DNA from: Bacillota bacterium | GTDB lineage: Bacteria > Bacillota > Sulfobacillia > Fermentithermobacillales > Fermentithermobacillaceae | Assembly: GCA_040766745.1 (NCBI GenBank) | Contig: JAXGPX010000001.1 | Location: forward strand, 187,950-251,949 | Length of the DNA: 64,000 bases | Direction of reading: 5' to 3' | In this document: positions 8,846-63,402 of the stretch, in pieces | How the letters are laid out: each line of letters opens with the position of its first letter | How positions within the stretch are numbered: the stretch's first letter is position 1 | The notes under the pieces: generated by a model | What the model saw: the letters and a program-made list of their open reading frames with translations, nothing else | Databases searched by the model: none | What the model was told of the DNA's origin: nothing | Translations under genes and position numbers: made by a program

Positions 8846-8846
8846 G

Positions 8847-9875
8847 TTGAGAGAAGCGGCGAAGAGAGCATGTGTTATTGGTGCCGGTTCCTGGGCTTCG
8901 GCTCTGGCATTGGTTTTATCGGATAACGGATACCAGGTAACCCTCTGGGCCAGAAATTCCAACACTATACAGGATTTTGATTCTACCAGGCGTTTACCTA
9001 GGCTGCCCAACATCACTTTGCCGCCAGCTATTACTGCTACGACAGATGTATATGGGGCTCTGCACGGCGCGTCACTGATCGTGATTGCTATCCCTTCCTC
9101 GGCAGTATCTTCTGTGGCCAAGACTATTGCAAAAGGTTTTCCTGCTGATGCTTTAGTGGTTACAGCAACTAAGGGTTTTGATCCTGCAACGTTGAGGAGG
9201 CCTTCACAGGTCTGGGTTGATGCAAATCCTACCCTTGAGAGGCGAATCAGCGTTTTGTCAGGCCCTAACTTTGCTGCGGAAGTGGCACAGAGGCTACCTG
9301 CAGCCACAGTTGTGGCTTCCCAAGAGGAAGCAACACGGCTTGCTGTCCAACACGCCTTTATGACAGGCTATTTCAGGGTCTATACCCATGAGGACATAAT
9401 AGGTGTTGAAATCGGCGGTGCATTGAAGAACATAATCGCTCTGGCCTGCGGCATGGCTGAAGGAATGGCAATAGGTCACAATGCTCAAGCGGCCATCATC
9501 TCACGGGGCATTGCGGAAATAGCCAGGCTGGGCGTTTGCCTGGGTGCTGAACCGCTTACATTTTCGGGCTTGTCGGGACTTGGAGACCTGGTTCTTACCA
9601 GTACAGGCGGGCTTTCCCGAAACCGCCAGGCAGGTATAGCAGTAGGCAAAGGTGAGTTAATCAAAGATTTTCTACATAGGACAGGCTATACGGTGGAAGG
9701 ATTTGAGACAGTTAAGACAGCAAGGGAACTGTCCCTTATCCATAACGTACAGATGCCGATAACCAATGTAGTTTATAGGACTCTCTATCAGGGATTATCT
9801 GTTGGTGAAGGCCTTTCGGAAATGATGAGCCGTGAGCGAAAACCTGAGAAGGAGCCTTTCTTCAGAACACACTAG
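8847..9875 (+). CDS. gpsA: NAD(P)H-dependent glycerol-3-phosphate dehydrogenase GpsA
   Basis: N-terminal Rossmann motif CVIGAGSWASALALVL. The conserved der-plsY-gpsA synteny supports the call. TTG start. Confidence 0.85.
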   Translation: MREAAKRACVIGAGSWASALALVLSDNGYQVTLWARNSNTIQDFDSTRRLPRLPNITLPPAITATTDVYGALHGASLIVIAIPSSAVSSVAKTIAKGFPADALVVTATKGFDPATLRRPSQVWVDANPTLERRISVLSGPNFAAEVAQRLPAATVVASQEEATRLAVQHAFMTGYFRVYTHEDIIGVEIGGALKNIIALACGMAEGMAIGHNAQAAIISRGIAEIARLGVCLGAEPLTFSGLSGLGDLVLTSTGGLSRNRQAGIAVGKGELIKDFLHRTGYTVEGFETVKTARELSLIHNVQMPITNVVYRTLYQGLSVGEGLSEMMSRERKPEKEPFFRTH

Positions 9876-27600: not shown

Positions 27601-27654
27601 AAGGGTAGTTCTTCTCACGTTGTTTGTAGGATCAGGAAAGAGGAGATGGTTATA

Positions 27655-38409: not shown

Positions 38410-39498
38410 ATGAAAAGAGCGCTACCTGTTTTGCTTGTACTTATGTTAGTTCTGGTTTCCATAGCAGGCTGTACACCCAAAGAGCCCCCGGCACCTGTAG
38501 AACCCGCTGCGCCTACTATTGCCAAGATAGGCCTTGGACATGTCACTAGCATTGCTAAATCAAAAGATCTTACAGTCGGGGAAGATGGGACTGTTACGCC
38601 TCCGGCGGCTCAGGTAGATACAGTGTTTGCAGGGGTTGCTTTCGACAAAGACGGTAAAGTCCTAAAGGTGTCCATCGATACTGCTCAGACAAAGGTCAAC
38701 TACGACAAGGATCTTAAGGTTACCTCTGATCTGTCTGCCCCTGGCAAGACCAAGGTCGAACTTGGAGCGGACTACGGTATGAAGAAGGTTTCAACAATCG
38801 GCAAGGAATGGTACGAGCAGATTGCCGAACTCGAGAAATGGATGATTGGGAAGACTGTAGACGAAATTAAGGGTATGAAAGTCAAGGAGCGCGACGCTTC
38901 ACATCCGTCAGTACCTGATGTACCGGAACTTACTTCTCTTGTTACCATTACTGTTCAGGATTATCTTGCTGCCGTTGAGGAAGCCCACAAGAACGCAGTT
39001 GAGGTTCCTGAAGGAGCTGTAAAACTAGGCCTTGGAAGCGAAATATCCATTGCCAAGTCCAGAGGTTATTCTCAGGCTGATGGAAAAGAGACCCTTCCCC
39101 AGGCCCAGGTAGATACAACTATCGCTGTCAGCGCTTTTGACAAAGACGGCAAGGTTGTACGTAACATTATCGACGTTGTGCAGACCAGAGTTGCCTACGA
39201 TAAAGAGGGCAAAGTAACCTCAGACAAGACTGCCGAGATTAAGAGCAAGGTAGAACTTGGCGAAGAATACGGCATGAAGAAGGTATCCACCATAGGCAAG
39301 GAATGGTTCGAGCAAATTGCCGAACTGGAGAAATGGATGGCAGGCAAGACCGTAGCCGAGATCAAGGCTATGAAGGTCAAAGAGCGTGACGCTTCTCACC
39401 CGTCAGTACCTGATGTGCCAGAGCTTACTTCCACTGTAACCATTACTGTACAGGACTACATTGCTGCTGTCGCCAAGTCTTTTGACAACGCCAAGTAG
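38410..39498 (+). CDS. Lipoprotein of unknown function built from two tandem copies of a ~165-aa module
   Basis: Signal peptide plus lipobox (SIAGC). The two halves align end to end. Their C-terminal 55 aa (YGMKKVSTIGKEW[Y/F]EQIAELEKWM.GKTV.EIK.MKVKERDASHPSVPDVPELTS) are nearly identical in protein but differ at many synonymous DNA positions. Confidence 0.7.
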   Translation: MKRALPVLLVLMLVLVSIAGCTPKEPPAPVEPAAPTIAKIGLGHVTSIAKSKDLTVGEDGTVTPPAAQVDTVFAGVAFDKDGKVLKVSIDTAQTKVNYDKDLKVTSDLSAPGKTKVELGADYGMKKVSTIGKEWYEQIAELEKWMIGKTVDEIKGMKVKERDASHPSVPDVPELTSLVTITVQDYLAAVEEAHKNAVEVPEGAVKLGLGSEISIAKSRGYSQADGKETLPQAQVDTTIAVSAFDKDGKVVRNIIDVVQTRVAYDKEGKVTSDKTAEIKSKVELGEEYGMKKVSTIGKEWFEQIAELEKWMAGKTVAEIKAMKVKERDASHPSVPDVPELTSTVTITVQDYIAAVAKSFDNAK

Positions 39499-39637
39499 TA
39501 CCTGGCTCAGAAAATAGATTTTCAGGTACTCCCCCGTCATCAGATGGGGGAGTACTATGTAGTCCCTGAAGTCCTAATTATGTACTCACGGGAGAAAGGG
39601 TATTGTAACTATGATGTTTATTCGCTTAACATAAAGA

Positions 39638-40774
39638 GTGGTGATAAAAGTGATAAAGACAGATTCGAAATCTTTCCTGAGGCTGATAAGCTTATTTGTG
39701 GCCGTCGCCATATCTGCTTCTATTAGCGGATGTCAATTGCTAAATACCCGAACCAGATACACTACTCCGGTACATTACACAGATAGTTTTTTCAATACGT
39801 TTGACACTATAGTCACTTTGGTTGCGTATACCGAGAACGAAGACGAATTTGACACGTATTATAAAAGGGTTTACACACGTATGCATGAGTTTCACCGGTT
39901 ATATGACATATACAACGACTACGAAGGTGTAAATAACATTAAGACAATAAACGACAATGCAGGTGTGAAACCGGTTAAAGTAAATCAAGAGATAATAGAC
40001 CTGATTCTCTTTTCAAAAGATTGGTACCGTCGCACCGGTGGAAAGGTGAACATTGCCATGGGTGCGGTGTTACGCATATGGCACGAGTACCGGCAGGAAG
40101 GACTTGATGATCCCGCCAGTGCCAAGTTACCTCCTATGGAAACCCTTCAAGAAGCTGCTAAACACACTGATATTGACAAGGTTGTTGTAGACACTGTAAA
40201 CAATACAGTGTACCTGGATGACAAAGAGATGAGGCTGGATGTCGGTGCTGTGGCCAAAGGTTACGCAACTGAAATGGTGGCCCAGGAGATAATGGCCATG
40301 GGGCTCAAATCAGGTATGCTAAGTTCAGGCGGCAACATACGGGCAATAGGGAAACCTCTCGACGGTTTGCGCGCACGCTGGGGCGTAGGTGTACAAGATC
40401 CCAGGCAGTCAATAGTATCTGAACAGGGCCTTCTTGACGTTCTCTATTTCAACGATGGGTCAGCAGCAAGCAGCGGGGATTACCAGAGGTATTACACTGT
40501 AGAAGGTAAGCGGTACCACCACATCATTGACCCTGAGACTCTTATGCCGGCAGAATACTACCGTGCAGTGACCGTGGTGACGGAGGACTCTGGGGTTGCC
40601 GATTTCATGTCAACAACCTTGTTTCTGCTGCCCTATACTGAAGGCAAGTCACTGGTGGATGATCTTGACGGGGTAGAAGCGTTATGGGTGATGGTTGACG
40701 GGAAAATAGAGGCCTCAGACGGTATGAAACTCATTATGAAAAGCCAAGGAGCTACAGGGAAAGAGCCTAAATAA
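39638..40774 (+). CDS. apbE: FAD:protein FMN transferase (ApbE family), made as a lipoprotein
   Basis: Lipobox ISGC. ApbE motifs (RLDVGAVAKGYATE, GMLSSGGNIRAIG). Confidence 0.8.
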   Translation: MVIKVIKTDSKSFLRLISLFVAVAISASISGCQLLNTRTRYTTPVHYTDSFFNTFDTIVTLVAYTENEDEFDTYYKRVYTRMHEFHRLYDIYNDYEGVNNIKTINDNAGVKPVKVNQEIIDLILFSKDWYRRTGGKVNIAMGAVLRIWHEYRQEGLDDPASAKLPPMETLQEAAKHTDIDKVVVDTVNNTVYLDDKEMRLDVGAVAKGYATEMVAQEIMAMGLKSGMLSSGGNIRAIGKPLDGLRARWGVGVQDPRQSIVSEQGLLDVLYFNDGSAASSGDYQRYYTVEGKRYHHIIDPETLMPAEYYRAVTVVTEDSGVADFMSTTLFLLPYTEGKSLVDDLDGVEALWVMVDGKIEASDGMKLIMKSQGATGKEPK

Positions 40775-42087: not shown

Positions 42088-42141
42088 AACTACCTGAAGG
42101 TAGACAACTGCCTGAAGAGTATGAATTGCCTGAAAGGTAGG
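42088..42141 (+). promoter_or_regulatory. Three phased 18-bp direct repeats (aaCTaCCTGAAGgtAg / aaCTgCCTGAAGagTA / aaTTgCCTGAAAggTAg) directly upstream of the RBS of the first gene of the membrane-protein operon
   Basis: Read directly at 42088-42141. The repeats are in phase with a possible 19-codon ORF (42085-42144, MNYLKVDNCLKSMNCLKGR) that lacks a convincing SD. Confidence 0.5.
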
Positions 42142-42149
42142 TGAACATT

Positions 42150-42923
42150 ATGACCATCGCAAAAGGACAGGTGTTTTCGACCATCACTTTGATCATCTAT
42201 TGTGCAGCTATCTTGATGATGATCTCCAGGGCTCGAAAAGGCATTAAGATCCCTGAACTGTATCAGGTTCCGGGACTGGATGCCCTCGATGAAGCCATCG
42301 GGCGTTGCACAGAGATGGGGCGGCCAGTTCACTTCTCACCGGGAATTGGGGGTGTTGATAACGCCCAGACCCTGGCGGCGCTGTCGATTCTTGGCTATGT
42401 AGCTCGCCAGTGCGCCAAGTACGACACTGACCTTATTGCTACTAACAGGATCACTGTGGTTTACCCTATAGCGGAAGAAATCGTAAAACAGGCTTTCATC
42501 GAGGAAGGGAAAGCTGGGAATTTCCAGCCGGAAAACGTCCGTTTCATTTCGGAAGACCAGTTTGCTTACGCAACGGGTGTAACCGGTATCATGCATCGCG
42601 AGAAGCCTGCAGCTAACCTGCTTCTTGGTGCTTTCTGGGCGGAGTCTCTTATCTTCGCTGAGGTAGGCGCTACTGCTGGAGCGATTCAGATTGCAGGTAC
42701 TGCCAACACGCACCAGATCCCCTTCTTTGTAGCAGCATGTGACTATGCTCTAATAGGCGAAGAGTTGTATGCTGCAAGTGCGTACCTCACGAAAGAGCCT
42801 ATCCTCATGGGCAGCCTTGTTGTTCAGGACTGGGGTAAGATGTTTGCAGCCGCCGCTATTATTATTGGCACTCTTCTGCAAACGGCAGGCGTGACCGCTC
42901 TAAAAGACATTATGGCCAAGTAG
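42150..42923 (+). CDS. Uncharacterised membrane-anchored protein (N-terminal TM, C-terminal hydrophobic region); first gene of a four-gene operon
   Basis: ORF 42141..42923. ATG 42150 preferred because AAAGGTAGGTG lies 6 nt upstream. No recognised domain. Confidence 0.55.
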   Translation: MTIAKGQVFSTITLIIYCAAILMMISRARKGIKIPELYQVPGLDALDEAIGRCTEMGRPVHFSPGIGGVDNAQTLAALSILGYVARQCAKYDTDLIATNRITVVYPIAEEIVKQAFIEEGKAGNFQPENVRFISEDQFAYATGVTGIMHREKPAANLLLGAFWAESLIFAEVGATAGAIQIAGTANTHQIPFFVAACDYALIGEELYAASAYLTKEPILMGSLVVQDWGKMFAAAAIIIGTLLQTAGVTALKDIMAK

Positions 42924-42995
42924 GTATGGTATCAACCACTATTGTTTTGAGATTAGTTCACATTGAAAGTGTTCCTATGAGAGGGGGGACAACTG

Positions 42996-43631
42996 TTGAA
43001 AAAGGAATTTCCAGTATTGATTGGGCTTCTCTTTGGCTTGTTCGTCATAATCGCCGTGTTTGTATCCGGTGTTCCAGGCCTTACTGAATGGAAAGACACA
43101 GTGGACGACTGGTTCTTGATGGCTTCGGCATGGGCAGTTGCAGTAGGCGTAGTTAACCTGACCCAGATTCATGGCAGGCGGGTTCAAATGAAGCGCGAGG
43201 GCTATGCATATAGTATATGGCTCATGGTTTGCATGTTTGGCATGGCATTCTTTGGTATCTTCATAGCCAAGAATGCAAATCACGCAGGCTGGAAGTTTAT
43301 GTACAACCAGTTAATCGCGCCAATGAACGCAACGGTTTACTCAACCCTGGTGTTCTATATCGGTGCAGCCGCTTACAGAGCCTTTAGGGTAAGAAACCTG
43401 GAAGCCAGCGTTCTTCTGGTCGCAGCTGTTCTCATGATGCTCGGCCGGGTGCCTCTGGGTAAGGTTCTTCTTGGCGATTGGGTCGGCGAGGCAGCCGACT
43501 GGATTCTCAACGTACCCAACTCTGCAGGTATGAGAGGAATTCAGATCGGCGCTACCCTGGGCGGTATTGCTACTGCTTTGAGGATTCTTGTTGGAATTGA
43601 GCGTGGCCACCTTGGTGGTACCGGTGAATGA
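42996..43631 (+). CDS. Uncharacterised polytopic membrane protein (211 aa)
   Basis: ORF with five to six hydrophobic helices, tightly linked in the operon. Confidence 0.5.
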   Translation: MKKEFPVLIGLLFGLFVIIAVFVSGVPGLTEWKDTVDDWFLMASAWAVAVGVVNLTQIHGRRVQMKREGYAYSIWLMVCMFGMAFFGIFIAKNANHAGWKFMYNQLIAPMNATVYSTLVFYIGAAAYRAFRVRNLEASVLLVAAVLMMLGRVPLGKVLLGDWVGEAADWILNVPNSAGMRGIQIGATLGGIATALRILVGIERGHLGGTGE

Positions 43632-43664
43632 TATCCGACTTCATGATAAGGGAGGTGAATCATA

Positions 43665-44483
43665 GTGTGGCAAAAACTGGCTAACATTGACAGGCGGGTT
43701 ATCTACGCTCTAATGATACTTGTAATTGCACTGTCGCTCATAAAGCCCGTAGGGCTTGCTATTGTACCGTCTCCAGAGACCAAGAGAGTATACGAATTTG
43801 TCGACTCTTTGCCTTCAGGCAGCATTGTGTATCTTGGTTTCGACCACTCTGCAGGGGGAATTCCTGAACTTATGCCTGCGGCCCAGTCGTTGGTTAGGCA
43901 GGGGTTCAGGAAAGATCTTCGCTTTGTATGCGCAGGTATGTGGGTTATGGCCGGAGATATGGCTGACACAGCCTTTTCCATTGCTAAAAATGAGTTTCCT
44001 GAGAAGGAATACGGTGTCGACTGGGTCAATGTAGGGTACAAACCCGGAGGCGAGGTATTGCTTCAGAAGATGCTTTCAAGCATTTACGATGCGGCTGTAG
44101 GGGTTGACCATTACGGCAATGACCTGAAAACTTTGCCCCTTATGGCCGAAGTTCCGACCATTAAGGATGCAGATGCGATATTCATATTTGTTACCGGTAC
44201 TCCCGGTGAGAAGGAATATATCAGGCACGTAACCTCACCTCATAACATCCCCTTCATAGTGTCTACTGTATCAGTAAGTGTGCCTGAACTGATGCCGTTG
44301 ATCCAGTCACGCCAGGTTTTGGCAGGAGTGCTCGGAATGAAGGGTGCAGCCGAGTATGAGGTTTTGGTTGGAAATCCCGGCAGCGCAACAGCGGGTATGG
44401 ACGCACAGTCGTTTTCCCACGCATTGATTATCTTGTTTATTATTCTTGGAAACCTGGGTTATATCTTGACCCGTGAGAAATAA
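43665..44483 (+). CDS. Uncharacterised protein with N- and C-terminal TM helices flanking a ~200-aa soluble domain
   Basis: ORF with an RBS (GGGAGGTG) upstream. No recognised domain. Confidence 0.5.
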   Translation: MWQKLANIDRRVIYALMILVIALSLIKPVGLAIVPSPETKRVYEFVDSLPSGSIVYLGFDHSAGGIPELMPAAQSLVRQGFRKDLRFVCAGMWVMAGDMADTAFSIAKNEFPEKEYGVDWVNVGYKPGGEVLLQKMLSSIYDAAVGVDHYGNDLKTLPLMAEVPTIKDADAIFIFVTGTPGEKEYIRHVTSPHNIPFIVSTVSVSVPELMPLIQSRQVLAGVLGMKGAAEYEVLVGNPGSATAGMDAQSFSHALIILFIILGNLGYILTREK

Positions 44484-44523
44484 CGCAAGCTTGGCCGTAA
44501 CGGCTGACAGGAGGTGAAAAACA

Positions 44524-45144
44524 GTGGATCTATTCGGTACCTGGCTTCAGGCTGTATTTACGATACTGCTGCTTTCAGTAGTATTTAAAGATAACCCAGC
44601 TTACCGTTTTGCCGAGAACACTTATGTTGGCCTGTATGCCGGCTACACCGTGGCGGTACAGTGGTTCAACTATATAAGGCCGAGCTTTCAGTTGAAGATT
44701 ATGCAAGAAGGCAAATGGTGGTATATTGTTCCCATCATTGTCGGCCTTATGATTTACACAAGGTATATAAAGCCCATTGCATGGGTCAGCCGGTATCACA
44801 TCTGCTTCCTATTGGGAATCGGATCCGGTTATATCTTGTCGACGACATTTAAGCCTATGTTTATCGACCAGATTAGGGCTACCTTCCTGCCCCTTTGGGT
44901 TGCAGGTGATTGGTGGAAGAGCGTTTCCAACATCATCTATGTTGTCGGCACCTTTTCGGCTCTAGTGTACTTCTTGTTTACCCTTGAGAAGAAGGGTGTC
45001 CAAGGTAAGATATCCGGCATGGGACGTTGGGTTATGATGGTAGCTTTCGGAGCAGCATTCGGCAACACTGTGATGGCCCGTGTATCATTGTTCCTTGGCA
45101 GAATGCAGTTTTTGCTGGGTGACTGGTTGAACATGATTAAGTAG
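44524..45144 (+). CDS. Uncharacterised polytopic membrane protein (206 aa)
   Basis: ORF with GGAGGTG upstream and multiple hydrophobic helices. Last gene of the operon. Confidence 0.5.
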   Translation: MDLFGTWLQAVFTILLLSVVFKDNPAYRFAENTYVGLYAGYTVAVQWFNYIRPSFQLKIMQEGKWWYIVPIIVGLMIYTRYIKPIAWVSRYHICFLLGIGSGYILSTTFKPMFIDQIRATFLPLWVAGDWWKSVSNIIYVVGTFSALVYFLFTLEKKGVQGKISGMGRWVMMVAFGAAFGNTVMARVSLFLGRMQFLLGDWLNMIK

Positions 45145-53184: not shown

Positions 53185-54207
53185 ATGAAAGTGGGAATAG
53201 CAGGCAGCCCTCAGTCTGGGAAAACTACCCTGTTCAGGCTGCTTACCGACGCAGGCTTGGCGGCCAGCCAAAGCAGCATAGGTGTTATGGAAGTACCTGA
53301 CCAACGAGTGAATATACTCTCCGGGATATATCAGCCTCGGAAAACCACTTATGCAAGAATAGATCTTGTGGACATTCAGGCACACAAAGGGCAAGAACTA
53401 CTCAATGCTGTGCGCAACCTTGATGTTCTCATTGTTGTCCTGGGATCTTTCATGGGCGACCTAGGAGTTAGGGATTCCATCGAGTTCGTAAGCGCAATGG
53501 AAACTGATTTCTACGTGGCTGACCTGGTCTCAGTTGAGAACAGGCTAGAGAAACTGAAGGCCAACAAGGCCAAGCCCATCAGCCAGATGGAATTGCCGTT
53601 TCTCGAAAAGTGCAAAGATGCACTGGATAAGGAGTTGCCCTTAAGGGATGTAGAATATCAGCCCTACGAGGCAGATCTGCTATCCAATTTCGCGTTTTAT
53701 ACAAACAAACCTGTAATTTTGGCACCCAACGTATCAGATGAACAGCTGTCGACAGGCAGTTATGCTGCAATGGAGCAGGTTCGCCGGCTGTCTGAAAGTA
53801 AAGGTTACAAAGTAGTTGTGTATTCGGGTATGGTCGAAGAAGAGATAGGTTCTTTGAGTGAAGAAGACAGGGTGCCGTTTTTGGAGGAGTATGGGCTTAC
53901 TGAGTCAGGGGTTGCAAGAATCGCCCGGGCGGCCTACAGCACGCTTGGCCTAATATCGTTCTTTACAGTTGGTTCAGATGAAGTCAGGGCCTGGACAATC
54001 CGCCAGGGCACTGCAGCTAAAGAGGCTGCCGGCAAGATCCATACAGACCTGGAGCGCGGGTTTATTAGAGCAGAGGTTGTGTCTTTCCAAGATTTCTCGG
54101 CCCTTGGTTCTATGAAAGTTTGCAGAGATAAAGGCCTTGTTAGGCTTGAAGGAAAAGATTATGTAGTAAGAGACGGTGACATAATGAACGTTAGATTCAA
54201 TGTTTGA
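53185..54207 (+). CDS. Divergent YchF/Ola1-family P-loop ATPase paralogue with a TGS-like C-terminus
   Basis: Clear YchF-like C-terminus (AWTIRQGTAAKEAAGKIHTDLERGFIRAEVV...KDYVVRDGDIMNVRFNV). Degenerate G motifs (G1 GSPQSGKT, no Gly in the G3 DxxG position). Confidence 0.65.
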   Translation: MKVGIAGSPQSGKTTLFRLLTDAGLAASQSSIGVMEVPDQRVNILSGIYQPRKTTYARIDLVDIQAHKGQELLNAVRNLDVLIVVLGSFMGDLGVRDSIEFVSAMETDFYVADLVSVENRLEKLKANKAKPISQMELPFLEKCKDALDKELPLRDVEYQPYEADLLSNFAFYTNKPVILAPNVSDEQLSTGSYAAMEQVRRLSESKGYKVVVYSGMVEEEIGSLSEEDRVPFLEEYGLTESGVARIARAAYSTLGLISFFTVGSDEVRAWTIRQGTAAKEAAGKIHTDLERGFIRAEVVSFQDFSALGSMKVCRDKGLVRLEGKDYVVRDGDIMNVRFNV

Positions 54208-54281: not shown

Positions 54282-55436
54282 TTACCGGACTGTGCGCACC
54301 TGATTTTTTCCTTTTCTTTTGGCCTGATGATTTGCTTCCTCCACTACTCTGATTAGGCCCTCCATATCAGAGGCATCGTCGGGGTAGGTTGCCACTCCTA
54401 TGGTTACTGTTACAGGATAGGGCCATGATTGAGTGGTGTCCTTTACCGCGCAACGCAGATTTTGTGCTATTTCAATGGCTGATGTTTTTGAACAATCAGG
54501 TATAACTATCATAAACTCGTCTCCTGAAAGCCATCGTGATACCAGTACACTGCGGGGAACCCTTGAGGCCAGTGTGGCTCCTAAGTCTTGTATCATGGCA
54601 TTGCCATGTGCATAGCCCAGGTTATCGTTGTACTGCCTGAGGTTGTCGCCGTCGATGAAAAGAAGGCTCATGGGAGTTCTGTTTTCCATGCTTGTTTCAA
54701 GTGATTTCTTAATAACATGTCTTGCAGCCCTGTGGTTGGGCAATTGTGAAATGTCATCTGTGTACGCCAGTTTCATTGTGTCTCTCAAGATCATGGCTGC
54801 TTCATGAATCTCTGAAATCATGAAGCGGGCCTTATCTGCCAGACCATGTTGTGAGTCCGGCACACTGGAACACACCTCAGGACACAAGTGAGTCTCTTTT
54901 GTCTCCAGGGTGTTCCAAAGGTTAACCAGCAAGTTTGGCATGTCCGGAAAGCCATTCTTGTAGAGTTCAACTGCCCAGGCGAATCTTGACTCGGCAGCGT
55001 ATGTGCTATGCTGGTTACGCACCTGGCTTGATAACTCAGAAACAAAGTGTTCTGCTATGTCTTTCTTGTCAGGAATTACAACAACGAATTCAGCAGCTCC
55101 TGTTGTGAAAATCCTTGTGCCGTCAAGGTTAAGGGACGAAATGGTATTACGGAGAATCTGCGCGAACAACCTGGCAGCATTTCCATGGCTGTGGCGTTCT
55201 TGCTCAGAGTCCTGTTGTTTGGCTAAATACAAATCTTGATGGCCTGCATTAAGAATCGACAAAGCAATCATGGTGCCTTCTGATGCCGAAATAATCCCCG
55301 GTAACCCGGTTACCAGGGCAAGAAAATTCGGCAACCCTGTTACCGGGTCTGTGTCCATCTGTGGCCATGGTTCCATTAACATGGTATATCTTTTTCCATA
55401 ATTCATGTAATCACCTATTAATTCTATCGATCCCAA
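54282..55436 (-). CDS. Tandem GGDEF-domain protein: degenerate N-terminal GGDEF-like domain plus C-terminal diguanylate-cyclase domain with an SGDEF active-site variant
   Basis: C-terminal domain LFIDGDNLRQYNDNLGYAHGNAMIQ...RWLSGDEFMIVIP. N-terminal pseudo-domain DPVTGLPN...TGAAEFVVVIP. Confidence 0.7.
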   Translation of the reverse strand: MGSIELIGDYMNYGKRYTMLMEPWPQMDTDPVTGLPNFLALVTGLPGIISASEGTMIALSILNAGHQDLYLAKQQDSEQERHSHGNAARLFAQILRNTISSLNLDGTRIFTTGAAEFVVVIPDKKDIAEHFVSELSSQVRNQHSTYAAESRFAWAVELYKNGFPDMPNLLVNLWNTLETKETHLCPEVCSSVPDSQHGLADKARFMISEIHEAAMILRDTMKLAYTDDISQLPNHRAARHVIKKSLETSMENRTPMSLLFIDGDNLRQYNDNLGYAHGNAMIQDLGATLASRVPRSVLVSRWLSGDEFMIVIPDCSKTSAIEIAQNLRCAVKDTTQSWPYPVTVTIGVATYPDDASDMEGLIRVVEEANHQAKRKGKNQVRTVR

Positions 55437-55650: not shown

Positions 55651-56445
55651 ATGCACATTATCTCGCTGTCAAGTTCAAGTAATCATGGAAACGCATATAT
55701 CGTATGGGAAGGCTCAAAGAGGCCTTTGCTCATTGACTGTGGTATGTCGCTAAGGCGGCTTGTTCAAGGATTGAGTAGTATAGGTATGGTTCCCGAGGAT
55801 CTGGCCGGTGTTTTTATAACCCACGAGCACATAGATCATGTTCGCGCCATGTGCCTGAAAACTCCGTTTCCACAGAAGTTTGGCATTCCGGTATACGCAT
55901 CAGCCGGCTTTTGGACGTGGTTTGATTCATGCCAGTGCAGCTACATAGATCCTTGCCTGATCAACTGCGTAAATAATGGCTGGAAAGGGAGCATTGCAGG
56001 CTACACGGTTCAGGCCTTCTTGAAGCCCCACGATGCCAGAGAACCAATGGGTTACAGAGTAGATGGGTCTTCTTCCAGCGCCGGTTTCGTCATGGACCTT
56101 GGGCATGTACCTCCTCAAGTGGAGGGCGTACTAAAAGGGGCCGAGTACCTTGTCTTTGAGGCGAACCATGACATCGACATGGAGATCAACTCAGGCAGGC
56201 CCAGGTTTTTGATTCAGAGGGTGATGGGGGAGTTAGGCCACCTTTCTAACGATCAAGCCGCTGATTCTTTGGGTAGATTGGTTACATCTGAAACAAAGCA
56301 GGTAATTCTTGCCCACCTGAGCATAGACTGTAACTGCCCTGAAACAGCAGTTGAAGTCATAGGCCAGAAGCTTGGCCAACTAGGGCACTGTCCGGATTTG
56401 GCCGCTGCCCCTCCGGGAAGTATCGCAGCTTATGGGAAGAAGTAA
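55651..56445 (+). CDS. MBL-fold metallo-hydrolase
   Basis: ITHEHIDHVRA (HxHxDH) motif and downstream His/Asp ligands. Confidence 0.75.
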   Translation: MHIISLSSSSNHGNAYIVWEGSKRPLLIDCGMSLRRLVQGLSSIGMVPEDLAGVFITHEHIDHVRAMCLKTPFPQKFGIPVYASAGFWTWFDSCQCSYIDPCLINCVNNGWKGSIAGYTVQAFLKPHDAREPMGYRVDGSSSSAGFVMDLGHVPPQVEGVLKGAEYLVFEANHDIDMEINSGRPRFLIQRVMGELGHLSNDQAADSLGRLVTSETKQVILAHLSIDCNCPETAVEVIGQKLGQLGHCPDLAAAPPGSIAAYGKK

Positions 56446-56460
56446 CAGAACGACCGCAGT

Positions 56461-57876
56461 TTATGCCGGAATTATGACTTCAACGTTTGCTTCGGCGACA
56501 GTTACCAGTTGTCCGTCGTCTAGCCGGACCCTAATCGCTTCCATTAGCCCCTCAGATTCAACAGGTATTTTTCCGGTTATTACCTCTTCTATGGTACCCC
56601 ATTGGCCAAAATACGGCTGACGCAGACACCTAATCCGGTCACCGGGTATTAGGTGAGCTCTCGCGATTGCCGCTGGCCGGCCTTTTGTACTCACCGGCTC
56701 AGTGCCTGGCTCAAGGGGCTCATCTGCACAGAGCTGCCTTGGGGATCCGTGGCTAACAAAAATCCATGGGCGTTTTACGCCTCCTGAGAGCCTAGTTGTC
56801 CCATCAATTGAGGCCAGACAGCCGTTGCCTTCCTTCAGAACTTGCCATGCCATATCATTCATGGGCATGAAGCCTGAGCCTTCTGTCATTATCATTGTGA
56901 ATACCAGGCCGTCAATAGCCGTATCTTGCGGATCTATTTCTTGCCCGGCGATCAAGGCCAGATCTTTTTGGTTCAGCCCCCCGGCCACAAGCCCACGGGC
57001 TCCCGAGGCCATTGCCTTTCTCATTGCCTGGTAGGTGGCACCTGCTCCTGCAGCCAGGATCTTGCCTTCAACTTCAGGACCTATGCCAGCTTCTTCCAGT
57101 ATATCCATGGGACTATCAGACATTACAGCAAGGCTTCCGTAACTCTCAGAGCCTACGCCAAACACTCCTTCCACTAAGCTTCCATAACCCTGGATGACTG
57201 CCCCTAAGTTCTCTACCGGTTTTACGATCTTACCTGGTACGTGGGCAAGTACTTTCAAGGTTTTCATAGGACGGACGATCGTTACGGTTCCTACCTTGGG
57301 GCAGATTCTCGCCACAATACCGCTTATTGGCGAGTAGACCAGTTCCAGTTCTCCTGCGTGGGGGGACCCGGCAATAATTTGGCCTTCTTGAACGTATTGT
57401 CCTTCTCTGACAGTTGTCTGAGTCCTCAACCATCGCGGGTTCATATTTAGAACTGAGCTTACCGGAACTACGGCCATGGGTTTCATAGAGTCTGGATCTT
57501 CGCTGAAGACTATTTTTGCCCCGAGCCTTGAAATGTATTGGATCATTCCATTACACGGAGCCGGTATTTCGGTAACCAGGCCTGTCGTTTCATCCTTGAA
57601 CCTGGCAACCGGTTCGCCGAAAGACACTCTTTCGCCAGGTTGTTTGATCATTGCCTTGTCAACAATATAGGGTGTTATTTTTGTCTTCAGCTCAGCCTGA
57701 AGGTCAATCACTCTAGGGCTTTCCTTTAGGTAGTCCGTCTTTGCTATGATGGCCGAAGGGCCTACAACATCTCCTGCCTTCACCAGAACCTTACCGGGGG
57801 AAGGAAGTGTCCGGGTTTTCAAGATATGTGTGTTCTTCCTGATTACGATTCTAGAGAATATGGCCATATCAATCAT
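56461..57876 (-). CDS. Uncharacterised 471-aa protein with hybrid-barrel/biotinyl-like segments; partner of the GlmL-like ATPase
   Basis: Long ORF overlapping the upstream gene's stop by 4 nt (operon). No confidently recognised domain. Confidence 0.5.
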   Translation of the reverse strand: MIDMAIFSRIVIRKNTHILKTRTLPSPGKVLVKAGDVVGPSAIIAKTDYLKESPRVIDLQAELKTKITPYIVDKAMIKQPGERVSFGEPVARFKDETTGLVTEIPAPCNGMIQYISRLGAKIVFSEDPDSMKPMAVVPVSSVLNMNPRWLRTQTTVREGQYVQEGQIIAGSPHAGELELVYSPISGIVARICPKVGTVTIVRPMKTLKVLAHVPGKIVKPVENLGAVIQGYGSLVEGVFGVGSESYGSLAVMSDSPMDILEEAGIGPEVEGKILAAGAGATYQAMRKAMASGARGLVAGGLNQKDLALIAGQEIDPQDTAIDGLVFTMIMTEGSGFMPMNDMAWQVLKEGNGCLASIDGTTRLSGGVKRPWIFVSHGSPRQLCADEPLEPGTEPVSTKGRPAAIARAHLIPGDRIRCLRQPYFGQWGTIEEVITGKIPVESEGLMEAIRVRLDDGQLVTVAEANVEVIIPA

Positions 57877-59693
57877 CCTTCACTGCCGGAATAAGTCTGT
57901 TTCCTGGCATCTGCCATTATTGCTTCTCCTGGGTATATACCCAATGTTTCATACCAGTTTCCAAGCGTTGCCTTGCGTATGCTATTATCCTGGGGCAGGG
58001 AAAGGGGCCTGCCTCTCCCGTCAAGAATTAAGCCCATATGACTGTTCAACACTGTGGCTTGCACGGGGTTGCCTTTTCCGGCTCCTGCGTCAAAGTCTCT
58101 TCTTGGCGTGATTTCCACCTCTATACTCGATGGACTCTCAAAGCGGACAACTGAAATCTCGCCGGCAACAATGTCATGGCTTGAACCGCCAAACCGTACC
58201 GTGGCAATAGGTGTTCCTAATTTGATGCGGGGCCCCACAGGAGCAATACATGTGGCGGCAAAACTTAGTGCATCAATGCCTGGGACTGGTTCTTCGGTGC
58301 AACTGAGTGCACAAAGAGTGCCTGCATAGGGGAGAAAGGCTCCTTCGTCCAGGTAAATATCGGTAACACCTTCAGGTTGAATTCCGTCAAGCACCATCGA
58401 TACAGCCTGGCTGCGCCTGGGAGCATTTGATATGACACCTCCCAAACCTACTACGGCACCGGTTCTTAATAGGTCTACCAGTGTGTTTCCGGTGCCGTGC
58501 TGAGTAAAGACGTCGCCTACTTGCCTCTGGATTTTTATGCCTTTAAGTCCTGTTACAAGAGAACGGTGGTGCTTCAGGGACAATCTAATGGCTTCTCTTG
58601 CAAAAGCCTGCTCAAGCATAAGTTCTTCCATGGTTTGGGGCAGGGTGGTCGGCCTGATCATCTTGTTAAGGTGCCAATTACGTACAAGGCCGTCATCTTC
58701 GTCCATTGGAAGCCACCGGCTTATGAACTCAGGCTTTGTTTCCTGGAGTATGCTGCCCATACTGTGAGACATCCCGACGTTTGCAAGGACGCTGCGGTAA
58801 AATTGGCCATTGATCATGGAAAAAACATCAGTTGTGGCGCCTCCTACGTCGACTGCCAGGACGTCTTGATTGCTTCTTGACGCCAGGCGGGTAAGGGCTG
58901 ATCCGATTGCCACAGGAGTTGGCTTTACCTTGCCCCGGGCCCAAAGGGCTAAAGTCTTGAACCCAGGGGCATTTGACATAACGTGCTCAAGAAAAATCTT
59001 CTGGATTGCCTCGCGTACAGGTTGAAGTGATTCCCTTTCCATTGTTGGGCGGATATTTTCAACACATATGACGTCCATTGAATCTCCGATTATCTCTTTC
59101 AGGTAAGGTTGGGCATCGATGTTGCCTGCATAAACCAACGGAGTCCTCGTTTGGCCCTTGAAACGAGGTTCCGGTGCAGCCAAAGATATAAATTCTGCCA
59201 GGGCCAGAACGTCTGATATGTTGCCTCCGTCTGTTCCGCCTGTAACCAGAATCATGTCGCATGGTATGTTCCTAACTTGCTCAAGGTTTCTCAACGCGGT
59301 ATTGGCCTTATTAAGGGATATTACGTTGGTAACGACGGCACCTGCTCCAAGGGCCGCTCTGTGGCCCGATTCTGCAGTGATCTTCTCAGTAAGCCCGGCC
59401 ACAAGTACCTGAAGTCCACCTCCGGCACTGGAAGTTGAGGCGAACCAATCAACACCCCCTGAATCACCTGAGGGAGAAACAAGGTGCCTTCCGGAAAGGA
59501 GTTCAACTCCGGTCCAGGATTCGAGTTTCTGAATAGCCCTTCGTAAACCGCTCATTACATCAAGCTCAGGTACGTCTACTGTAGTAGGCGCTGTTGCCCT
59601 ATGAACGATGTGCCATTTACCTGCGTTTCTCTCCAGAAGGGACACTTTGGTAAAGGTAGTGCCAACATCTGCAATAAGTATGCGTTCAGGCAT
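57873..59693 (-). CDS. GlmL/MutL (glutamate-mutase accessory protein)-family ASKHA-fold ATPase with a ~160-aa C-terminal extension
   Basis: N-terminal ILIADVGTTFTKVSL and DVGGATTDVFS actin-like ATPase motifs typical of GlmL. Internal ATG 59693 has GGAGGG 9 nt upstream. No mutase E/S genes nearby. Confidence 0.6.
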   Translation of the reverse strand: MPERILIADVGTTFTKVSLLERNAGKWHIVHRATAPTTVDVPELDVMSGLRRAIQKLESWTGVELLSGRHLVSPSGDSGGVDWFASTSSAGGGLQVLVAGLTEKITAESGHRAALGAGAVVTNVISLNKANTALRNLEQVRNIPCDMILVTGGTDGGNISDVLALAEFISLAAPEPRFKGQTRTPLVYAGNIDAQPYLKEIIGDSMDVICVENIRPTMERESLQPVREAIQKIFLEHVMSNAPGFKTLALWARGKVKPTPVAIGSALTRLASRSNQDVLAVDVGGATTDVFSMINGQFYRSVLANVGMSHSMGSILQETKPEFISRWLPMDEDDGLVRNWHLNKMIRPTTLPQTMEELMLEQAFAREAIRLSLKHHRSLVTGLKGIKIQRQVGDVFTQHGTGNTLVDLLRTGAVVGLGGVISNAPRRSQAVSMVLDGIQPEGVTDIYLDEGAFLPYAGTLCALSCTEEPVPGIDALSFAATCIAPVGPRIKLGTPIATVRFGGSSHDIVAGEISVVRFESPSSIEVEITPRRDFDAGAGKGNPVQATVLNSHMGLILDGRGRPLSLPQDNSIRKATLGNWYETLGIYPGEAIMADARKQTYSGSEG

Positions 59694-59713
59694 TCTATGT
59701 TCCCTCCATCTGG

Positions 59714-60937
59714 TCAAATACCTCCGCAAAGGCCACAATTTGCGCATGAGGGATTTGAGACCACATATACCGGCCTATTGCTCAGAAGCTGGTCGCAATT
59801 TGCGTTTCTTACTAGCCTGAGCGGCAGCCAGACTCCTGCAGCTAGAGTGAGGGCCCCGATAATAGATGCTACTGCATAAGCGCCCCAGGGCAAAACCGAT
59901 CCTGTGTCAAGGAAACGAACCAGGTACTTTCCGGCAAAGATTCCCAGGATGATACTGGGGGTACCAAGATAGGCTGCTTCTAGTGACATTGTCCGCCGCA
60001 GGTCTGCGACCGTGCTTCCAAGTACCCTGAGAATCCCCAGTGAGCGCTTCCTGCCAAGGAAAGAAACTGTTAGAACGCATGTAATTGCTGTAGCTGCAGC
60101 CAGCAACACTATCAACGATATGAATTGCCAGTAGGAGAAAGCGCCTTTTGTTGCATTTTCAAGGGATACTTTGCCTGAAAACGGCGTGATCACCCTTGCT
60201 CCGCGGGCAGAGTTTTCAAGTTCCCGGAAAAGCCTATCTCTTAGGGGTGATGTTGAGTATGTCTTAGAAGCTGTAATCAATAAACCAGGGGCCTGCCCTG
60301 GCAGTTTCTCCAGTACAGACGGGTTTACCGATGCCCACCCATAAAGGCTGTAAGGAGCCGGTGCCTTATCCCCTTTGCTTGTTTCCGGTGCAATCACATT
60401 TTTCCATTGGAACCTGGTGGCCGGATTGCCAGGGCTCCACGCTATCAGTTCATGATTGGTTTTGTCTGCATCTGTCTCTCGTACAAACGGAAAAAGAAAC
60501 TCAATTGTGTCCTCTGGTAAATGGGTGCCCGTGCCGATTAGGAATAACCGGCCACATCCGGCTTCAACTTCTCCACATAGGACCGGCTCAAGGGTTGCCC
60601 TGTGTGAAAGAGTTCTGCTTCTCTTCATGAAATCATCTGCATCTTCCTGGTTTGAAAAGACCACGAACCCATCGAAAGGCAGGCCTGCTTCATGTACTTT
60701 GGCAGACAGGACTTCTACGTTCCTGGCAATTATTGTGGTGATAAGGAAAGAGACTGTGACGCTGAGAAATACTGAGCATGCCACGAAAATCGCAAATGCC
60801 GGCGTGTACCGGATTCTGCGGCCGGCAATCAGCCTGTATACAGGAAACGCGTTGGCCTTGGGACGCTTGATTGTAAGGGGCTGCCCAAGAGAGTACGAAG
60901 GCCGCGGGTTAGCCGGGCTGTTAGATGAGCGTGCCAT
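59714..60937 (-). CDS. ABC transporter permease, FtsX/MacB-like
   Basis: C-terminal FtsX-type four-helix bundle region (LGILRVLGSTVADLRRTMSLEAAYLG). The large extracytoplasmic loop sits between TM1 and TM2. Confidence 0.7.
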   Translation of the reverse strand: MARSSNSPANPRPSYSLGQPLTIKRPKANAFPVYRLIAGRRIRYTPAFAIFVACSVFLSVTVSFLITTIIARNVEVLSAKVHEAGLPFDGFVVFSNQEDADDFMKRSRTLSHRATLEPVLCGEVEAGCGRLFLIGTGTHLPEDTIEFLFPFVRETDADKTNHELIAWSPGNPATRFQWKNVIAPETSKGDKAPAPYSLYGWASVNPSVLEKLPGQAPGLLITASKTYSTSPLRDRLFRELENSARGARVITPFSGKVSLENATKGAFSYWQFISLIVLLAAATAITCVLTVSFLGRKRSLGILRVLGSTVADLRRTMSLEAAYLGTPSIILGIFAGKYLVRFLDTGSVLPWGAYAVASIIGALTLAAGVWLPLRLVRNANCDQLLSNRPVYVVSNPSCANCGLCGGI

Positions 60938-61631
60938 GGCTATCGCTCCTCTCGTAGACCTCGCCGTCTCTTAGCTGTATCACAACGTCTGCATACTCCA
61001 AGAATGCCGGGTCATGGGTGGCAATAATGAAAGTTTGCTTTTCTTCCTTGTTGAACTTAGAGAAAAGCTCCATGATCTCTCTTGAGCGAGTTGAATCAAG
61101 GTTGCCGGTTGGTTCGTCTGCCAGGACCACTGCCGGCCTTGTTGAGAGAGCTCTGCATATGGCGACTCGCTGTTGCTCGCCTCCGCTGAGTTCTGACGGG
61201 TAATGTTTTTGCCTTTCGAGAAGGCCCACTGAACCAAGCAGATATGAAGTTCTTTCTGAGATTTCGTTGTCTTTGTAACCGGCAAGCCTCATAGGTAAGC
61301 CGATGTTTTCCACTGCCGTCAGTTCAGGAAGCAGGTTGAAGAACTGAAATACCATACCGATTTCTGTCCTTCTCAATATGGCAAGATCATCTTCTGAAAG
61401 TCGCGAAAACTTTCTACCCTTCAAGATGACCTCGCCGTGGCTTGGCCTGTCTATGCCTCCCAAAATGTTTAGAAGAGTGCTTTTGCCTGAGCCTGAAGGG
61501 CCCATGATAACCACAAACCAGCCTTCCTGAACATCTACCTCCACGTCTCTCAATGCAAACAACCCGTCGCCAACGGGGTAAAATTTCGATATTTCATGGC
61601 AACTTATGATAGGGCCGGTCCATCTATTCAC
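60921..61631 (-). CDS. ABC transporter ATP-binding protein (MacB/LolD-like)
   Basis: Walker A GPSGSGKST, signature LSGGEQQRVAICRAL, Walker B VVLADEPTGNLD. Start set at the internal GTG (61631) with GGAGGTG 8 nt upstream. Confidence 0.8.
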   Translation of the reverse strand: MNRWTGPIISCHEISKFYPVGDGLFALRDVEVDVQEGWFVVIMGPSGSGKSTLLNILGGIDRPSHGEVILKGRKFSRLSEDDLAILRRTEIGMVFQFFNLLPELTAVENIGLPMRLAGYKDNEISERTSYLLGSVGLLERQKHYPSELSGGEQQRVAICRALSTRPAVVLADEPTGNLDSTRSREIMELFSKFNKEEKQTFIIATHDPAFLEYADVVIQLRDGEVYERSDSHGTLI

Positions 61632-63084
61632 GGCTAAGCACCTCCGAACAGGATAGTCGGGACGCCCATGAAGCGATTCCGAAGCCAATTGCTAAAGATA
61701 TGCCAAGTGAAATACATGTAATTTTGGCAAAATCGCTAAGGGCTTGAGCAAACCATTCTCCAATTGAAAGATCTGATCCGAGAAGAGTCACAAGATAGAG
61801 GAGGTTGCCAAGGACAGCCCCTGAAACAGTTCCAATGGCCGAAACATAGGCAACCAGCGTAAGGACGTATTGTATGATATCTCTTGATGTAGCGCCTACT
61901 ACTCTCAACAGGCCGATTTTCCGTTTTTGCTGTACAACTGTGATGTAGATATTGCCTGCAACCACCACGCTTGCAAACCCAATTATGAGTGAAGTGAAGA
62001 CTGAATGAAGGTCAGGGGGCATTACTACGTGGTTGCGGGCTTTTGCAGTATATGATAATGCCTCAGGTACTGCATATACCCCATAGTCACTTCCAAGGGC
62101 CTCTCTTACAAGCCTTGTGGTTTCCCGCAGTTGAGACATTCTGTCAACTGTTAAAGTGATCTGGTAACTTGGAAAGTTCAGGCCAAAAGATTCTAGGTAC
62201 TCATTTTTGAGCCTGGGGTTCAGATCCTCGATTATGCTTTCAAATGCCTCTACAGGGATGATAACTTCGGGCCGGATCCAAAACACCGGGATCATCGGGG
62301 GAGGGTCAGGTGAATTCCTTGCTGCTTCATAGTCTGGCGTTTCACCTACCTGGATCTGATACCCTCCTGTAACCGTGAACGAGTATTGTTTTGCTTCATC
62401 CCATGAGATGCCTGCATATAAAAAGGGCTTTCCGGCAGGAGAAACAGATTTGGTGATAACGGCGTTTGGGACAGATATGGTCAATTTGTCATCAGGCTTT
62501 ACTTTCTCAAAGCCTTTGATTTGAAGAGGAATAAGAGCCTGATGGCTTTCTGCGCTTGTATTGGTTAAAGGATCTCCTAATGCCACATGGGGGTCCAGAG
62601 GATACTCAGACTCAAGATCATATCCCCTGAGTATGGCCGGAATCCTTCTGTTATCAACAGTCACGATACATGGCAGTGAACGGTAGGCCGAAATACCCTT
62701 TATATTGGGAATATCCCTGATTTCCTCGAGAATTTGATTGGGAACCATGGCCCGCCATCCTGCACATTCCTCTTCTGTAAGATATCCGGTTGAGCCAGTC
62801 TCAGGAAAGTAGTAGAGGAGGTGAGACTGCCAATCGCTGCCTTGCCAGTTTCGCCAAACCAGCATGGGAGTGTCTGTCGACGATAAGGGAGTGTGGGCAG
62901 GAAAAATAACGATGTCTCCTCCCGAGAATGTTCGTTCAGGCAAGGCAACCCCCAGGTTATAGCCTTCTGGGATGACCCGGAGCAGGATTACGATCATGGC
63001 CGCCAGGGCAGATGCTATGACAGCCACAAGCGTCCGCGTTGGGTTTCGCCGGACTTCGGCCATAGCAAGTCTTGCAAAATCCAA
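61624..63084 (-). CDS. ABC transporter permease, FtsX/MacB-like with a large extracytoplasmic domain
   Basis: N-terminus MDFARLAMAEVRRNPTRTLVAVIA is typical of FtsX-family permeases. C-terminal FtsX region (IGLLRVVGATSRDIIQYV). Confidence 0.7.
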   Translation of the reverse strand: MDFARLAMAEVRRNPTRTLVAVIASALAAMIVILLRVIPEGYNLGVALPERTFSGGDIVIFPAHTPLSSTDTPMLVWRNWQGSDWQSHLLYYFPETGSTGYLTEEECAGWRAMVPNQILEEIRDIPNIKGISAYRSLPCIVTVDNRRIPAILRGYDLESEYPLDPHVALGDPLTNTSAESHQALIPLQIKGFEKVKPDDKLTISVPNAVITKSVSPAGKPFLYAGISWDEAKQYSFTVTGGYQIQVGETPDYEAARNSPDPPPMIPVFWIRPEVIIPVEAFESIIEDLNPRLKNEYLESFGLNFPSYQITLTVDRMSQLRETTRLVREALGSDYGVYAVPEALSYTAKARNHVVMPPDLHSVFTSLIIGFASVVVAGNIYITVVQQKRKIGLLRVVGATSRDIIQYVLTLVAYVSAIGTVSGAVLGNLLYLVTLLGSDLSIGEWFAQALSDFAKITCISLGISLAIGFGIASWASRLSCSEVLSRE

Positions 63085-63340: not shown

Positions 63341-63402
63341 GGCATTGGTTCAGTTTTATCTGGTCCTCGGGATTTTATTCCTGAAAGGGGGCTGAGACAA
63401 AT

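Follow-up and report, generated by a model that had tools for sequence, protein, structure and literature searches.

What is the function of a GlmL-like ATPase that is encoded together with a large partner protein and with no B12-dependent mutase beside it? This question is raised by two genes at positions 56461-59693 of a 64,000-nucleotide stretch of Bacillota contig JAXGPX010000001.1 (assembly GCA_040766745.1, positions 187,950 to 251,949), which we refer to as the window. A first-pass annotation made from the sequence alone had described the genes as an orphan pair, consisting of a 606-amino acid (aa) GlmL/MutL-like ATPase and an uncharacterised 471-aa protein, and had suggested a chaperone-like or reactivase-like role or that of a nucleotide-dependent assembly factor. 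Our analysis points to a different answer. We propose that the pair may be the soluble ATPase-adaptor arm of a conserved membrane-associated system and not the accessory of a B12-dependent mutase, a reading that we regard as evenly balanced between right and wrong.

Both open reading frames (ORFs) were found on the minus strand with the coordinates and lengths first given for them. Since their orthologues reach identities of up to 98% for the ATPase and 92% for the partner, the two are real genes and not chance reading frames. The 606-aa reading of the ATPase starts at the ATG at 59693, with the ribosome-binding site GGAGGG 5' of it. The longest ORF starts at 59747 and has 624 aa; the orthologue lengths of 606, 603 and 596 aa favour the start at 59693. 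Translational coupling, which had been proposed for the two genes, was read directly from the sequence: the ATPase stop codon and the partner ATG overlap by 4 nucleotides as ATGA at 57873-57876. Both proteins were used for homology searches and for AlphaFold2 (AF2) structure prediction, as the first-pass annotation had proposed.

The ATPase matches Pfam PF13941 (MutL) over aa 5-462 with an E-value of 2.4e-99 and 333.6 bits (gathering cut-off 27). Judged by this profile it is a member of the MutL/GlmL family at the Pfam level, where the GlmL-like assignment survives. All three GlmL-specific NCBIfam models score below their cut-offs (NF040745 at 210.9 against 475, NF040744 at 173.4 against 600, and TIGR01319 at 145.3 against 204.05), and the ATPase homologue in locus L007 is likewise under the NCBIfam GlmL cut-offs. 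Additionally, the Pfam families Hydantoinase_A and Hydant_A_N are matched below cut-off, at 18.2 versus 22.9 and 17.2 versus 25.2 bits, respectively. The Pfam match covers the core of the acetate and sugar kinase/Hsp70/actin (ASKHA) type (about 58308-59681). Beyond the end of the Pfam model follows the C-terminal extension of aa 463-606 (57876-58307), which had been recognised before and is 144 aa long, not about 160.

The AF2 model of the ATPase has a mean predicted local distance difference test (pLDDT) score of 83.5 and a predicted template modelling score of 0.86. It consists of the ASKHA core followed by a folded extra domain at aa 477-601, which is made up of a beta-sandwich (477-558) and two helices (570-601). 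Within the extension, the motif L[IV][LI]D[GA]RGRP is invariant among homologues and reads LILDGRGRP in the window. An alignment of 41 homologues furthermore shows conservation of DxG(S/T)TxTK, TSSAGGGL, GGTDGGN, DxGGATTD and GxGG, and of the phosphate-1, phosphate-2, connect and adenosine motifs. By these conserved nucleotide-binding motifs the ATPase looks competent.

A Foldseek search with the ATPase model gave as best solved structures the ATPase subunits of acetophenone carboxylase, N-methylhydantoinase, acetone carboxylase and caprolactamase (E 1e-9 to 1e-5). The top matches were 5l9w_B at 1.2e-9, 9h03_A and 5svc_B, with TM-scores of only about 0.3. PilM, FtsA, Hsp70 and DdrA, the alpha subunit of diol-dehydratase reactivase, ranked after these hydantoinase-type matches. 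PDB sequence searches with the whole ATPase and with its C-terminal domain gave nothing significant.

The pair is not an orphan, as had been assumed, but part of a two-gene family that is conserved and very large. Long-MutL genes of about 600 aa number in the thousands, and a homology search with the ATPase returned 7703 matches. Among the best 120 of these, nearly all have 96-99% query coverage and about 590-640 aa, the few shorter ones probably being truncated. In NCBI records they are called 'glutamate mutase L' or 'methylaspartate mutase'.

The partner is not a known enzyme, in line with its first description as uncharacterised. Pfam gave weak matches only, all of the barrel-sandwich-hybrid type (RnfC_N at 26.5 bits, Biotin_lipoyl and NqrA_N), together with faint BSH_YknX and BSH_RND matches in its relatives, and NCBIfam gave no match. 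Its AF2 model (pLDDT 86.9) suggests five domains. Two barrel-sandwich-hybrid domains at aa ~5-200 are followed by a small beta-barrel with a conserved GVFGxGGE loop (aa ~204-250), an alpha/beta domain with a TEG(F)G motif (aa ~270-375), a disordered linker, and a C-terminal KOW/Tudor-like domain (aa 412-468). The KOW domain was the sole match when the whole model was compared with the PDB by Foldseek. PDB sequence searches with the partner and its central domain gave nothing significant, RraA appearing weakly at E 0.078, and a profile-profile comparison gave no link between the alpha/beta domain and the soluble domains of the DUF6754 or 286-aa families described below.

An exhaustive profile search found 3482 cluster representatives of the partner family at 50% identity, of which 1040 had E<1e-30; it set right a word-index homology search that had under-sampled the family with about 50 matches. 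The majority of the family members are shorter (about 375 aa) and do not have the second barrel-sandwich-hybrid domain. Two functions considered for the partner were dismissed. A periplasmic adaptor or membrane fusion protein of a MacB-type pump should have a transmembrane (TM) segment, a signal and an alpha-hairpin, none of which was seen by hydropathy or in the AF2 model; hydropathy predicted no hydrophobic segment in the partner. A biotin or lipoyl carrier needs a lysine that is not conserved here, the IAKTD position being K, R or H.

The association of the two genes was followed in two sets of loci, in which single loci are given by L numbers. The ATPase adjoins the partner in 45 of the 46 Bacillota-type loci. 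Furthermore, 80 metagenome loci were fetched by the C-terminal motif of the ATPase alone, 75 of them with enough flanking sequence to be assessed, and the partner was located in 57 of the 75: it adjoined the ATPase gene in 49, was no more than a few kb away in 7, and was fused with the ATPase in 1. A fusion cluster of 995 aa (P0225) comprises at least eight distinct sequences from ENA, Logan and NCBI in independent assemblies and is therefore not a sequencing artefact. A separate ATPase-partner fusion ORF of 1000 aa is present at L092 7552-10554. We also found two pairs side by side, inverted at L085 2131-8419 and in tandem at L100 1-6379, from which it follows that the module has been duplicated repeatedly. 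The ATPase and the partner thus are one unit that is translationally coupled, sometimes fused and widely conserved, and we infer that the two proteins bind each other.

In most lineages the pair is accompanied within one operon by DUF6754 and three to five additional membrane proteins. Neighbouring genes of the pair were clustered and then mapped, which gave a canonical operon for the lineages with the short partner. It encodes one or two small membrane proteins, the ATPase, the partner, a DUF6754 protein and three proteins of about 216, 286 and 259 aa. The 216-aa protein has 4-5 TM segments, the 286-aa protein a soluble domain between two TM segments, and the 259-aa protein six TM segments. 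A clear example is L007, a metagenome-assembled genome (MAG) of the Oligoflexia, in which the DUF6754 gene is located directly downstream of the partner gene. Parts of this block (DUF6754 and homologues of the 216-, 286- and 259-aa proteins) were found in 43 of 126 fetched loci. The small membrane proteins elsewhere are encoded just 5' of the ATPase gene, often overlapping its start; no such gene was found in the window. For the membrane proteins of the canonical operon there was no NCBIfam model, no PDB relative apart from Fn3, and no publication that we could find.

The window contains its own copy of the block, of four genes (Table 1). The first-pass annotation had called for a look at neighbourhood conservation; the pair is indeed conserved, but the DUF6754 gene and the three genes after it at 42141-45144, which are the companions of the pair in other phyla, had been missed. 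The DUF6754 protein of the window is predicted to have a TM segment, a conserved core of about 200 aa and a second TM segment, and it does not have the Fn3 ectodomain of other lineages. Since that Fn3 domain, recognised by a PDB match, is at the N-terminus, the conserved core would face the cytoplasm. The 272-aa protein has an N-terminal TM segment, a soluble domain of about 220 aa and a C-terminal TM segment; it has no Pfam match, and its 286-aa family has no PDB match. The split arrangement of pair and block is shared by the closest relatives L001-3, L012, L016 and L050, in which the distance between them is 2-9 kb. Just upstream of the block, at 38410-40774, are a gene for a lipoprotein of 362 aa that is internally duplicated and matches nothing in Pfam, and a gene for an ApbE flavin transferase (39638-40774). 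The latter led us to consider an Rnf/Nqr-like complex, which was dropped, as the block proteins carry no [ST]GA[ST] flavinylation motif and have no similarity to Nqr or Rnf.

In the window the pair forms the tail of an operon of five tightly packed ORFs on the minus strand (56461-63084). The MacB-type ATP-binding cassette (ABC) exporter that had been noticed next door is confirmed as two FtsX permeases and an ABC ATPase, but it had been overlooked that all five genes share one operon. Judged by their FtsX domains, their external domains and the separate ABC ATPase, the three upstream genes are a MacB/FtsX-type (type VII) ABC transporter. The gene order of the operon is repeated in L001-3, L010-16, L018, L047, L050 and L051. 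For the ABC ATPase the most likely start is the GTG at 61631, which is preceded by a GGAGG site and from which the gene overlaps the end of the upstream gene by 8 nt; the orthologue has 236 aa. The best NCBIfam matches of the ABC ATPase are LolD, FtsE and MacB, each below cut-off. By hydropathy, permease 1 has an external domain of about 320 aa, and permease 2 a first TM segment, an external domain of about 200 aa and the FtsX TM bundle. Promoter-like matches are not enriched over shuffled sequence, and the site 5' of the operon in Table 1 is tentative.

Permease 2 ends in a cytoplasmic tail with four cysteines, C-x17-SNPSCANCGLCGGI-COOH (about 59717-59851). Of the 26 ABC-coupled loci that were examined, from two clades, 25 keep its consensus RNxxCxQLLxN[RK]PVYxxSNPSCAxCGLCGG[IVF], and the exception, L010, reads like a frameshift. 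The tail could bind Zn or an Fe-S cluster, or it could serve as a docking peptide.

A neighbour-joining tree of the ATPase gave four groups, clades A-D. In clade A, to which the window belongs, the ABC cassette is immediately upstream of the pair in all but one member (downstream in L017, cut off in L048) and the DUF6754 block is nearby. Clade B has a cassette of the same type in some members and none in others. The clade-B loci with a cassette (L022, L032, L034, L036, L044) have ATPase-partner pairs on both of its flanks, the upstream pair being highly divergent with a short partner (for example L044 1-2345 and 6185-9428). Nine MAGs hold both a clade-A and a clade-B pair. Clade C has an SBP_bac_5 gene upstream of the pair, and clade D is the large short-partner clade that carries the DUF6754 block. 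The ABC link is lineage-specific but clearly non-random, because the cysteine tail is so widely kept and because the permease-ABC-permease cassette lies directly upstream of the pair in two separate clades. As a separate observation, an SBP_bac_5 (peptide/nickel-type solute-binding) gene without cognate permease genes alongside is located beside the pair in several unrelated loci (Table 1).

The possibility that the ATPase is a true GlmL-type reactivase or chaperone, acting in trans on an adenosylcobalamin-dependent mutase or aminomutase encoded elsewhere, was ranked last and is in our view very improbable. It draws on the Pfam family shared with GlmL and on a fold similar to that of the diol dehydratase reactivase alpha subunit (2d0o_C, E 3.8e-5). 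The ATPase is nevertheless under all of the GlmL, Or-4 and glmL_fam cut-offs, and canonical GlmL (about 460 aa) has neither the extra C-terminal domain nor an obligate partner. The earlier statement that no B12 mutase is nearby was upheld: a Pfam scan of the window that covered non-shadow ORFs of 150 aa or more found no B12-dependent mutase family; it left aside shorter ORFs (the size of a GlmS-type subunit) and the 340-aa ORF at 53185-54207, whose counterpart in L001 matches YchF-GTPase_C. No mutase Pfam family was present in the Pfam-annotated related loci either. Rfam gave one tRNA only and no cobalamin riboswitch in the window, and no riboswitch was found in eight operon loci. The recurrent context, over several phyla, consists of membrane and transport proteins and not of B12 enzymes, and a chaperone-like or reactivase-like role has no support beyond the family name; an assembly factor, which had also been suggested, or an ATP-dependent module with some other target may still apply. 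The evidence rules against naming this ATPase GlmL. In L128, a partner-less long MutL-like gene (8001-9776) is located 2.4 kb downstream of a gene for a PduO-type cobalamin adenosyltransferase (5071-5613), in which a reactivase role would find some support; none of the loci showed any other neighbour related to B12.

Two further explanations make different use of the fold of the ATPase. The pair might be a soluble enzyme that uses ATP to act on a small molecule, as hydantoinase, oxoprolinase and acetone carboxylase do. The ASKHA subunit would then phosphorylate or activate the substrate, the partner would be a second catalytic or carrier subunit, and the neighbours would import substrate or export product. 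We consider this unlikely. It would explain why the best structure matches are hydantoinase- and carboxylase-type subunits and why Hydantoinase_A and Hydant_A_N appear weakly in the ATPase; known hydantoinase-type enzymes are multi-subunit too, and the partner has biotinyl/lipoyl-like domains and conserved glycine-rich loops in its alpha/beta domain. Set against this are the low TM-scores, the Pfam scores below cut-off, a partner that is not Hydantoinase_B and in which the carrier lysine is not conserved, and the four to six dedicated membrane proteins, which exceed the needs of simple uptake. A membrane-tethered actin-like scaffold resembling PilM or FtsA, which we rate as distinctly unlikely, would polymerise on or cap the short cytoplasmic tails of bitopic proteins and thereby organise an envelope machine, ATP acting as an assembly switch and not as a motor. 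PilM and FtsA are among the top structure matches (E 4e-7 to 2e-6), the small membrane proteins encoded just upstream at other loci would suit such a scaffold, and FtsA reportedly interacts with FtsEX, which is an ABC complex of the FtsX type. The hydantoinase-type enzymes are better matches than PilM and FtsA, though, and the window has no detected small upstream membrane protein.

Under the reading we prefer, the ATPase and the partner would form a stoichiometric cytoplasmic complex, in which the former is an ATP-hydrolysing actin-fold subunit of the MutL/GlmL-hydantoinase-A lineage and the latter a multi-domain adaptor with barrel-sandwich-hybrid, beta-barrel, alpha/beta and KOW domains. 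DUF6754 and the three further membrane proteins, here at 42141-45144, would make up the rest of the system. The adaptor would relay the ATP-driven opening and closing of the ASKHA cleft to the membrane partners on their cytoplasmic side, and the output would be an envelope, transport or assembly function and not a soluble metabolic reaction. In the Fermentithermobacillaceae the module would also be wired to a dedicated heterodimeric FtsX/MacB-type ABC transporter within one operon, and the four-cysteine tail of the permease is a candidate docking or sensing site.

Several observations weigh against this ATPase-adaptor arm. In the window the DUF6754 block is 11 kb from the pair and on the opposite strand, and a second, paralogous pair is often present in these genomes that could be the real partner of the block. 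The remaining 18 of the 75 assessable metagenome loci have a long MutL gene with no partner found near it. The nearest solved structures to the ATPase are soluble small-molecule enzymes, and the ABC transporter has its own ATPase, which makes the need for a second one unexplained. Finally, the adenosyltransferase gene of L128 keeps a B12 link possible for some branches. A bolder version holds that the pair, DUF6754 and the membrane proteins together make up a class of trans-membrane machine that had escaped recognition and serves transport, secretion or envelope assembly. The machine would be energised by an ASKHA and not a P-loop ATPase, and in the Fermentithermobacillaceae it would be coupled, mechanically or by regulation, to a MacB-type ABC transporter via the four-cysteine tail. 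This version is unlikely.

Table 1. Features of the window discussed in the text, and SBP_bac_5 genes beside the pair in other loci
Feature	Coordinates	Strand	Evidence and remarks
DUF6754 membrane protein, 260 aa	42141..42923	plus	Pfam PF20539 at 1e-95; phmmer 8.8e-65 to L007 gene
Polytopic membrane protein, 211 aa, about 4-5 TM, block gene 2	42996..43631	plus	phmmer 2.4e-36 to L007 216-aa gene; hydropathy
Bitopic membrane protein, 272 aa, block gene 3	43665..44483	plus	phmmer 3.7e-44 to L007 286-aa gene
Polytopic membrane protein, 206 aa, block gene 4	44524..45144	plus	phmmer 4.2e-39 to L007 259-aa gene
Partner (putative adaptor protein), 471 aa	56461..57876	minus	ATGA overlap with ATPase gene; AF2 model; profile search
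Long MutL/GlmL-like ASKHA ATPase, 606 aa	57873..59693	minus	Pfam PF13941; AF2 model; motif conservation
FtsX-domain permease 2, 407 aa	59714..60937	minus	Pfam FtsX 2.9e-10; 20-nt gap to ATPase gene
ABC ATPase, 236 aa, LolD/FtsE/MacB type	60921..61631	minus	Pfam ABC_tran 2.4e-33; 17-nt overlap with next gene
FtsX-domain permease 1, 486 aa	61624..63084	minus	Pfam FtsX 9.4e-07; hydropathy; first operon gene; 8-nt overlap with next gene
Promoter-like site TTGTCT-17-TAAAAT	63372..63400	minus	Consensus match only; 5' of operon
SBP_bac_5 neighbour	L004 6405-8042
SBP_bac_5 neighbour	L127 6394-7938
SBP_bac_5 neighbour	L042 1232-2935
SBP_bac_5 neighbour	L124 4945-6816
SBP_bac_5 neighbour	L080 1545-3446

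The genome of the window is that of a spore-forming member of the Bacillota, with SpoIIP, YIEGIA and SpoIVA, and it also encodes NiFe and FeFe hydrogenases. The relatives nearest to it are MAGs of Candidatus Fermentithermobacillaceae. The pair is followed directly downstream by genes for a GGDEF diguanylate cyclase (54282-55436) and a metallo-beta-lactamase (MBL)-fold hydrolase (55651-56445). All clade-A loci share the MBL gene in synteny; it is convergent with the partner gene at a gap of 15 nt, and the hydrolase of the relatives has an Anti-Pycsar_Apyc1 Pfam match. A defence system was considered and set aside, as PADLOC gave nothing but generic ABC ATPase similarity. Elsewhere in the window, 27646-33237 encodes a giant protein of 1863 aa in which nothing but the C-terminal SLH domains can be recognised and which probably belongs to the S-layer or the cell surface.

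Taken together, the data define a conserved system of several genes that encode an ASKHA ATPase, a five-domain putative adaptor, DUF6754 and three to five membrane proteins. This is of practical consequence, as the names 'glutamate mutase L' and even 'methylaspartate mutase' are at present given to thousands of such genes from Bacillota, Chloroflexota, Bdellovibrionota, Armatimonadota and candidate phyla. Naming of the GlmL type would wrongly imply glutamate fermentation or B12 metabolism in metabolic reconstructions from MAGs. If the ATPase does power or gate the membrane components, membrane machines would be known to be energised in a new way, and the ABC-coupled variant with its conserved cysteine tail is a well-defined test case for coupling.

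Both the ASKHA fold and the Pfam family have been described before. For the pair, its C-terminal and adaptor domains and the membrane block, we found no described counterpart in Pfam, NCBIfam, PADLOC, the PDB or the open-access literature; in the latter, nothing was found on PF13941, TIGR01319 or DUF6754, and GlmL appeared only in the canonical glutamate mutase context. Canonical GlmL/MutL (PF13941; NF040745; TIGR01319), the accessory of glutamate (methylaspartate) mutase, shares the Pfam family, the ASKHA fold and the nucleotide-binding motifs with the ATPase. In contrast to GlmL, the ATPase is far below the family cut-offs, is longer by the 144 aa that hold the beta-sandwich, the helices and the DGRGRP motif, is never found beside glmS or glmE here, and has a partner that canonical GlmL does not have. 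The HyuA-type subunits of acetone and acetophenone carboxylase, N-methylhydantoinase, caprolactamase and 5-oxoprolinase, which gave the best structure matches, likewise belong to multi-subunit ATP-dependent systems built around an ASKHA subunit; they differ in having a Hydantoinase_B partner, Pfam domains that here remain below cut-off, and a context of catabolic genes instead of membrane proteins.

The DdrAB/GdrAB reactivases also have an ASKHA ATPase in a two-subunit complex, and the alpha/beta domain of the partner may resemble a swivelling-type domain, for which the weak RraA match (E 0.078) is the sole evidence. Unlike in these reactivases, no B12 enzyme is encoded near the pair, and the partner has five domains and 471 aa instead of being a small flavodoxin-like beta subunit. 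PilM-PilNO and FtsA-FtsEX/FtsN resemble the pair in that a cytoplasmic ASKHA protein is encoded with bitopic and polytopic membrane proteins, here including an FtsX-type ABC, and the folds match at E about 1e-6; the ATPase differs by having no sequence-level membership of these families, another domain decoration, and no pilus or divisome genes around it. The barrel-sandwich-hybrid domains of the NqrA/RnfC N-termini and of the MacA/YknX type are the only Pfam signals of the N-terminal domains of the partner. The partner is neither RnfC nor NqrA, having no NuoF-like or Fe-S (iron-sulfur) modules; both RnfC and NqrA are peripheral cytoplasmic subunits of membrane complexes.

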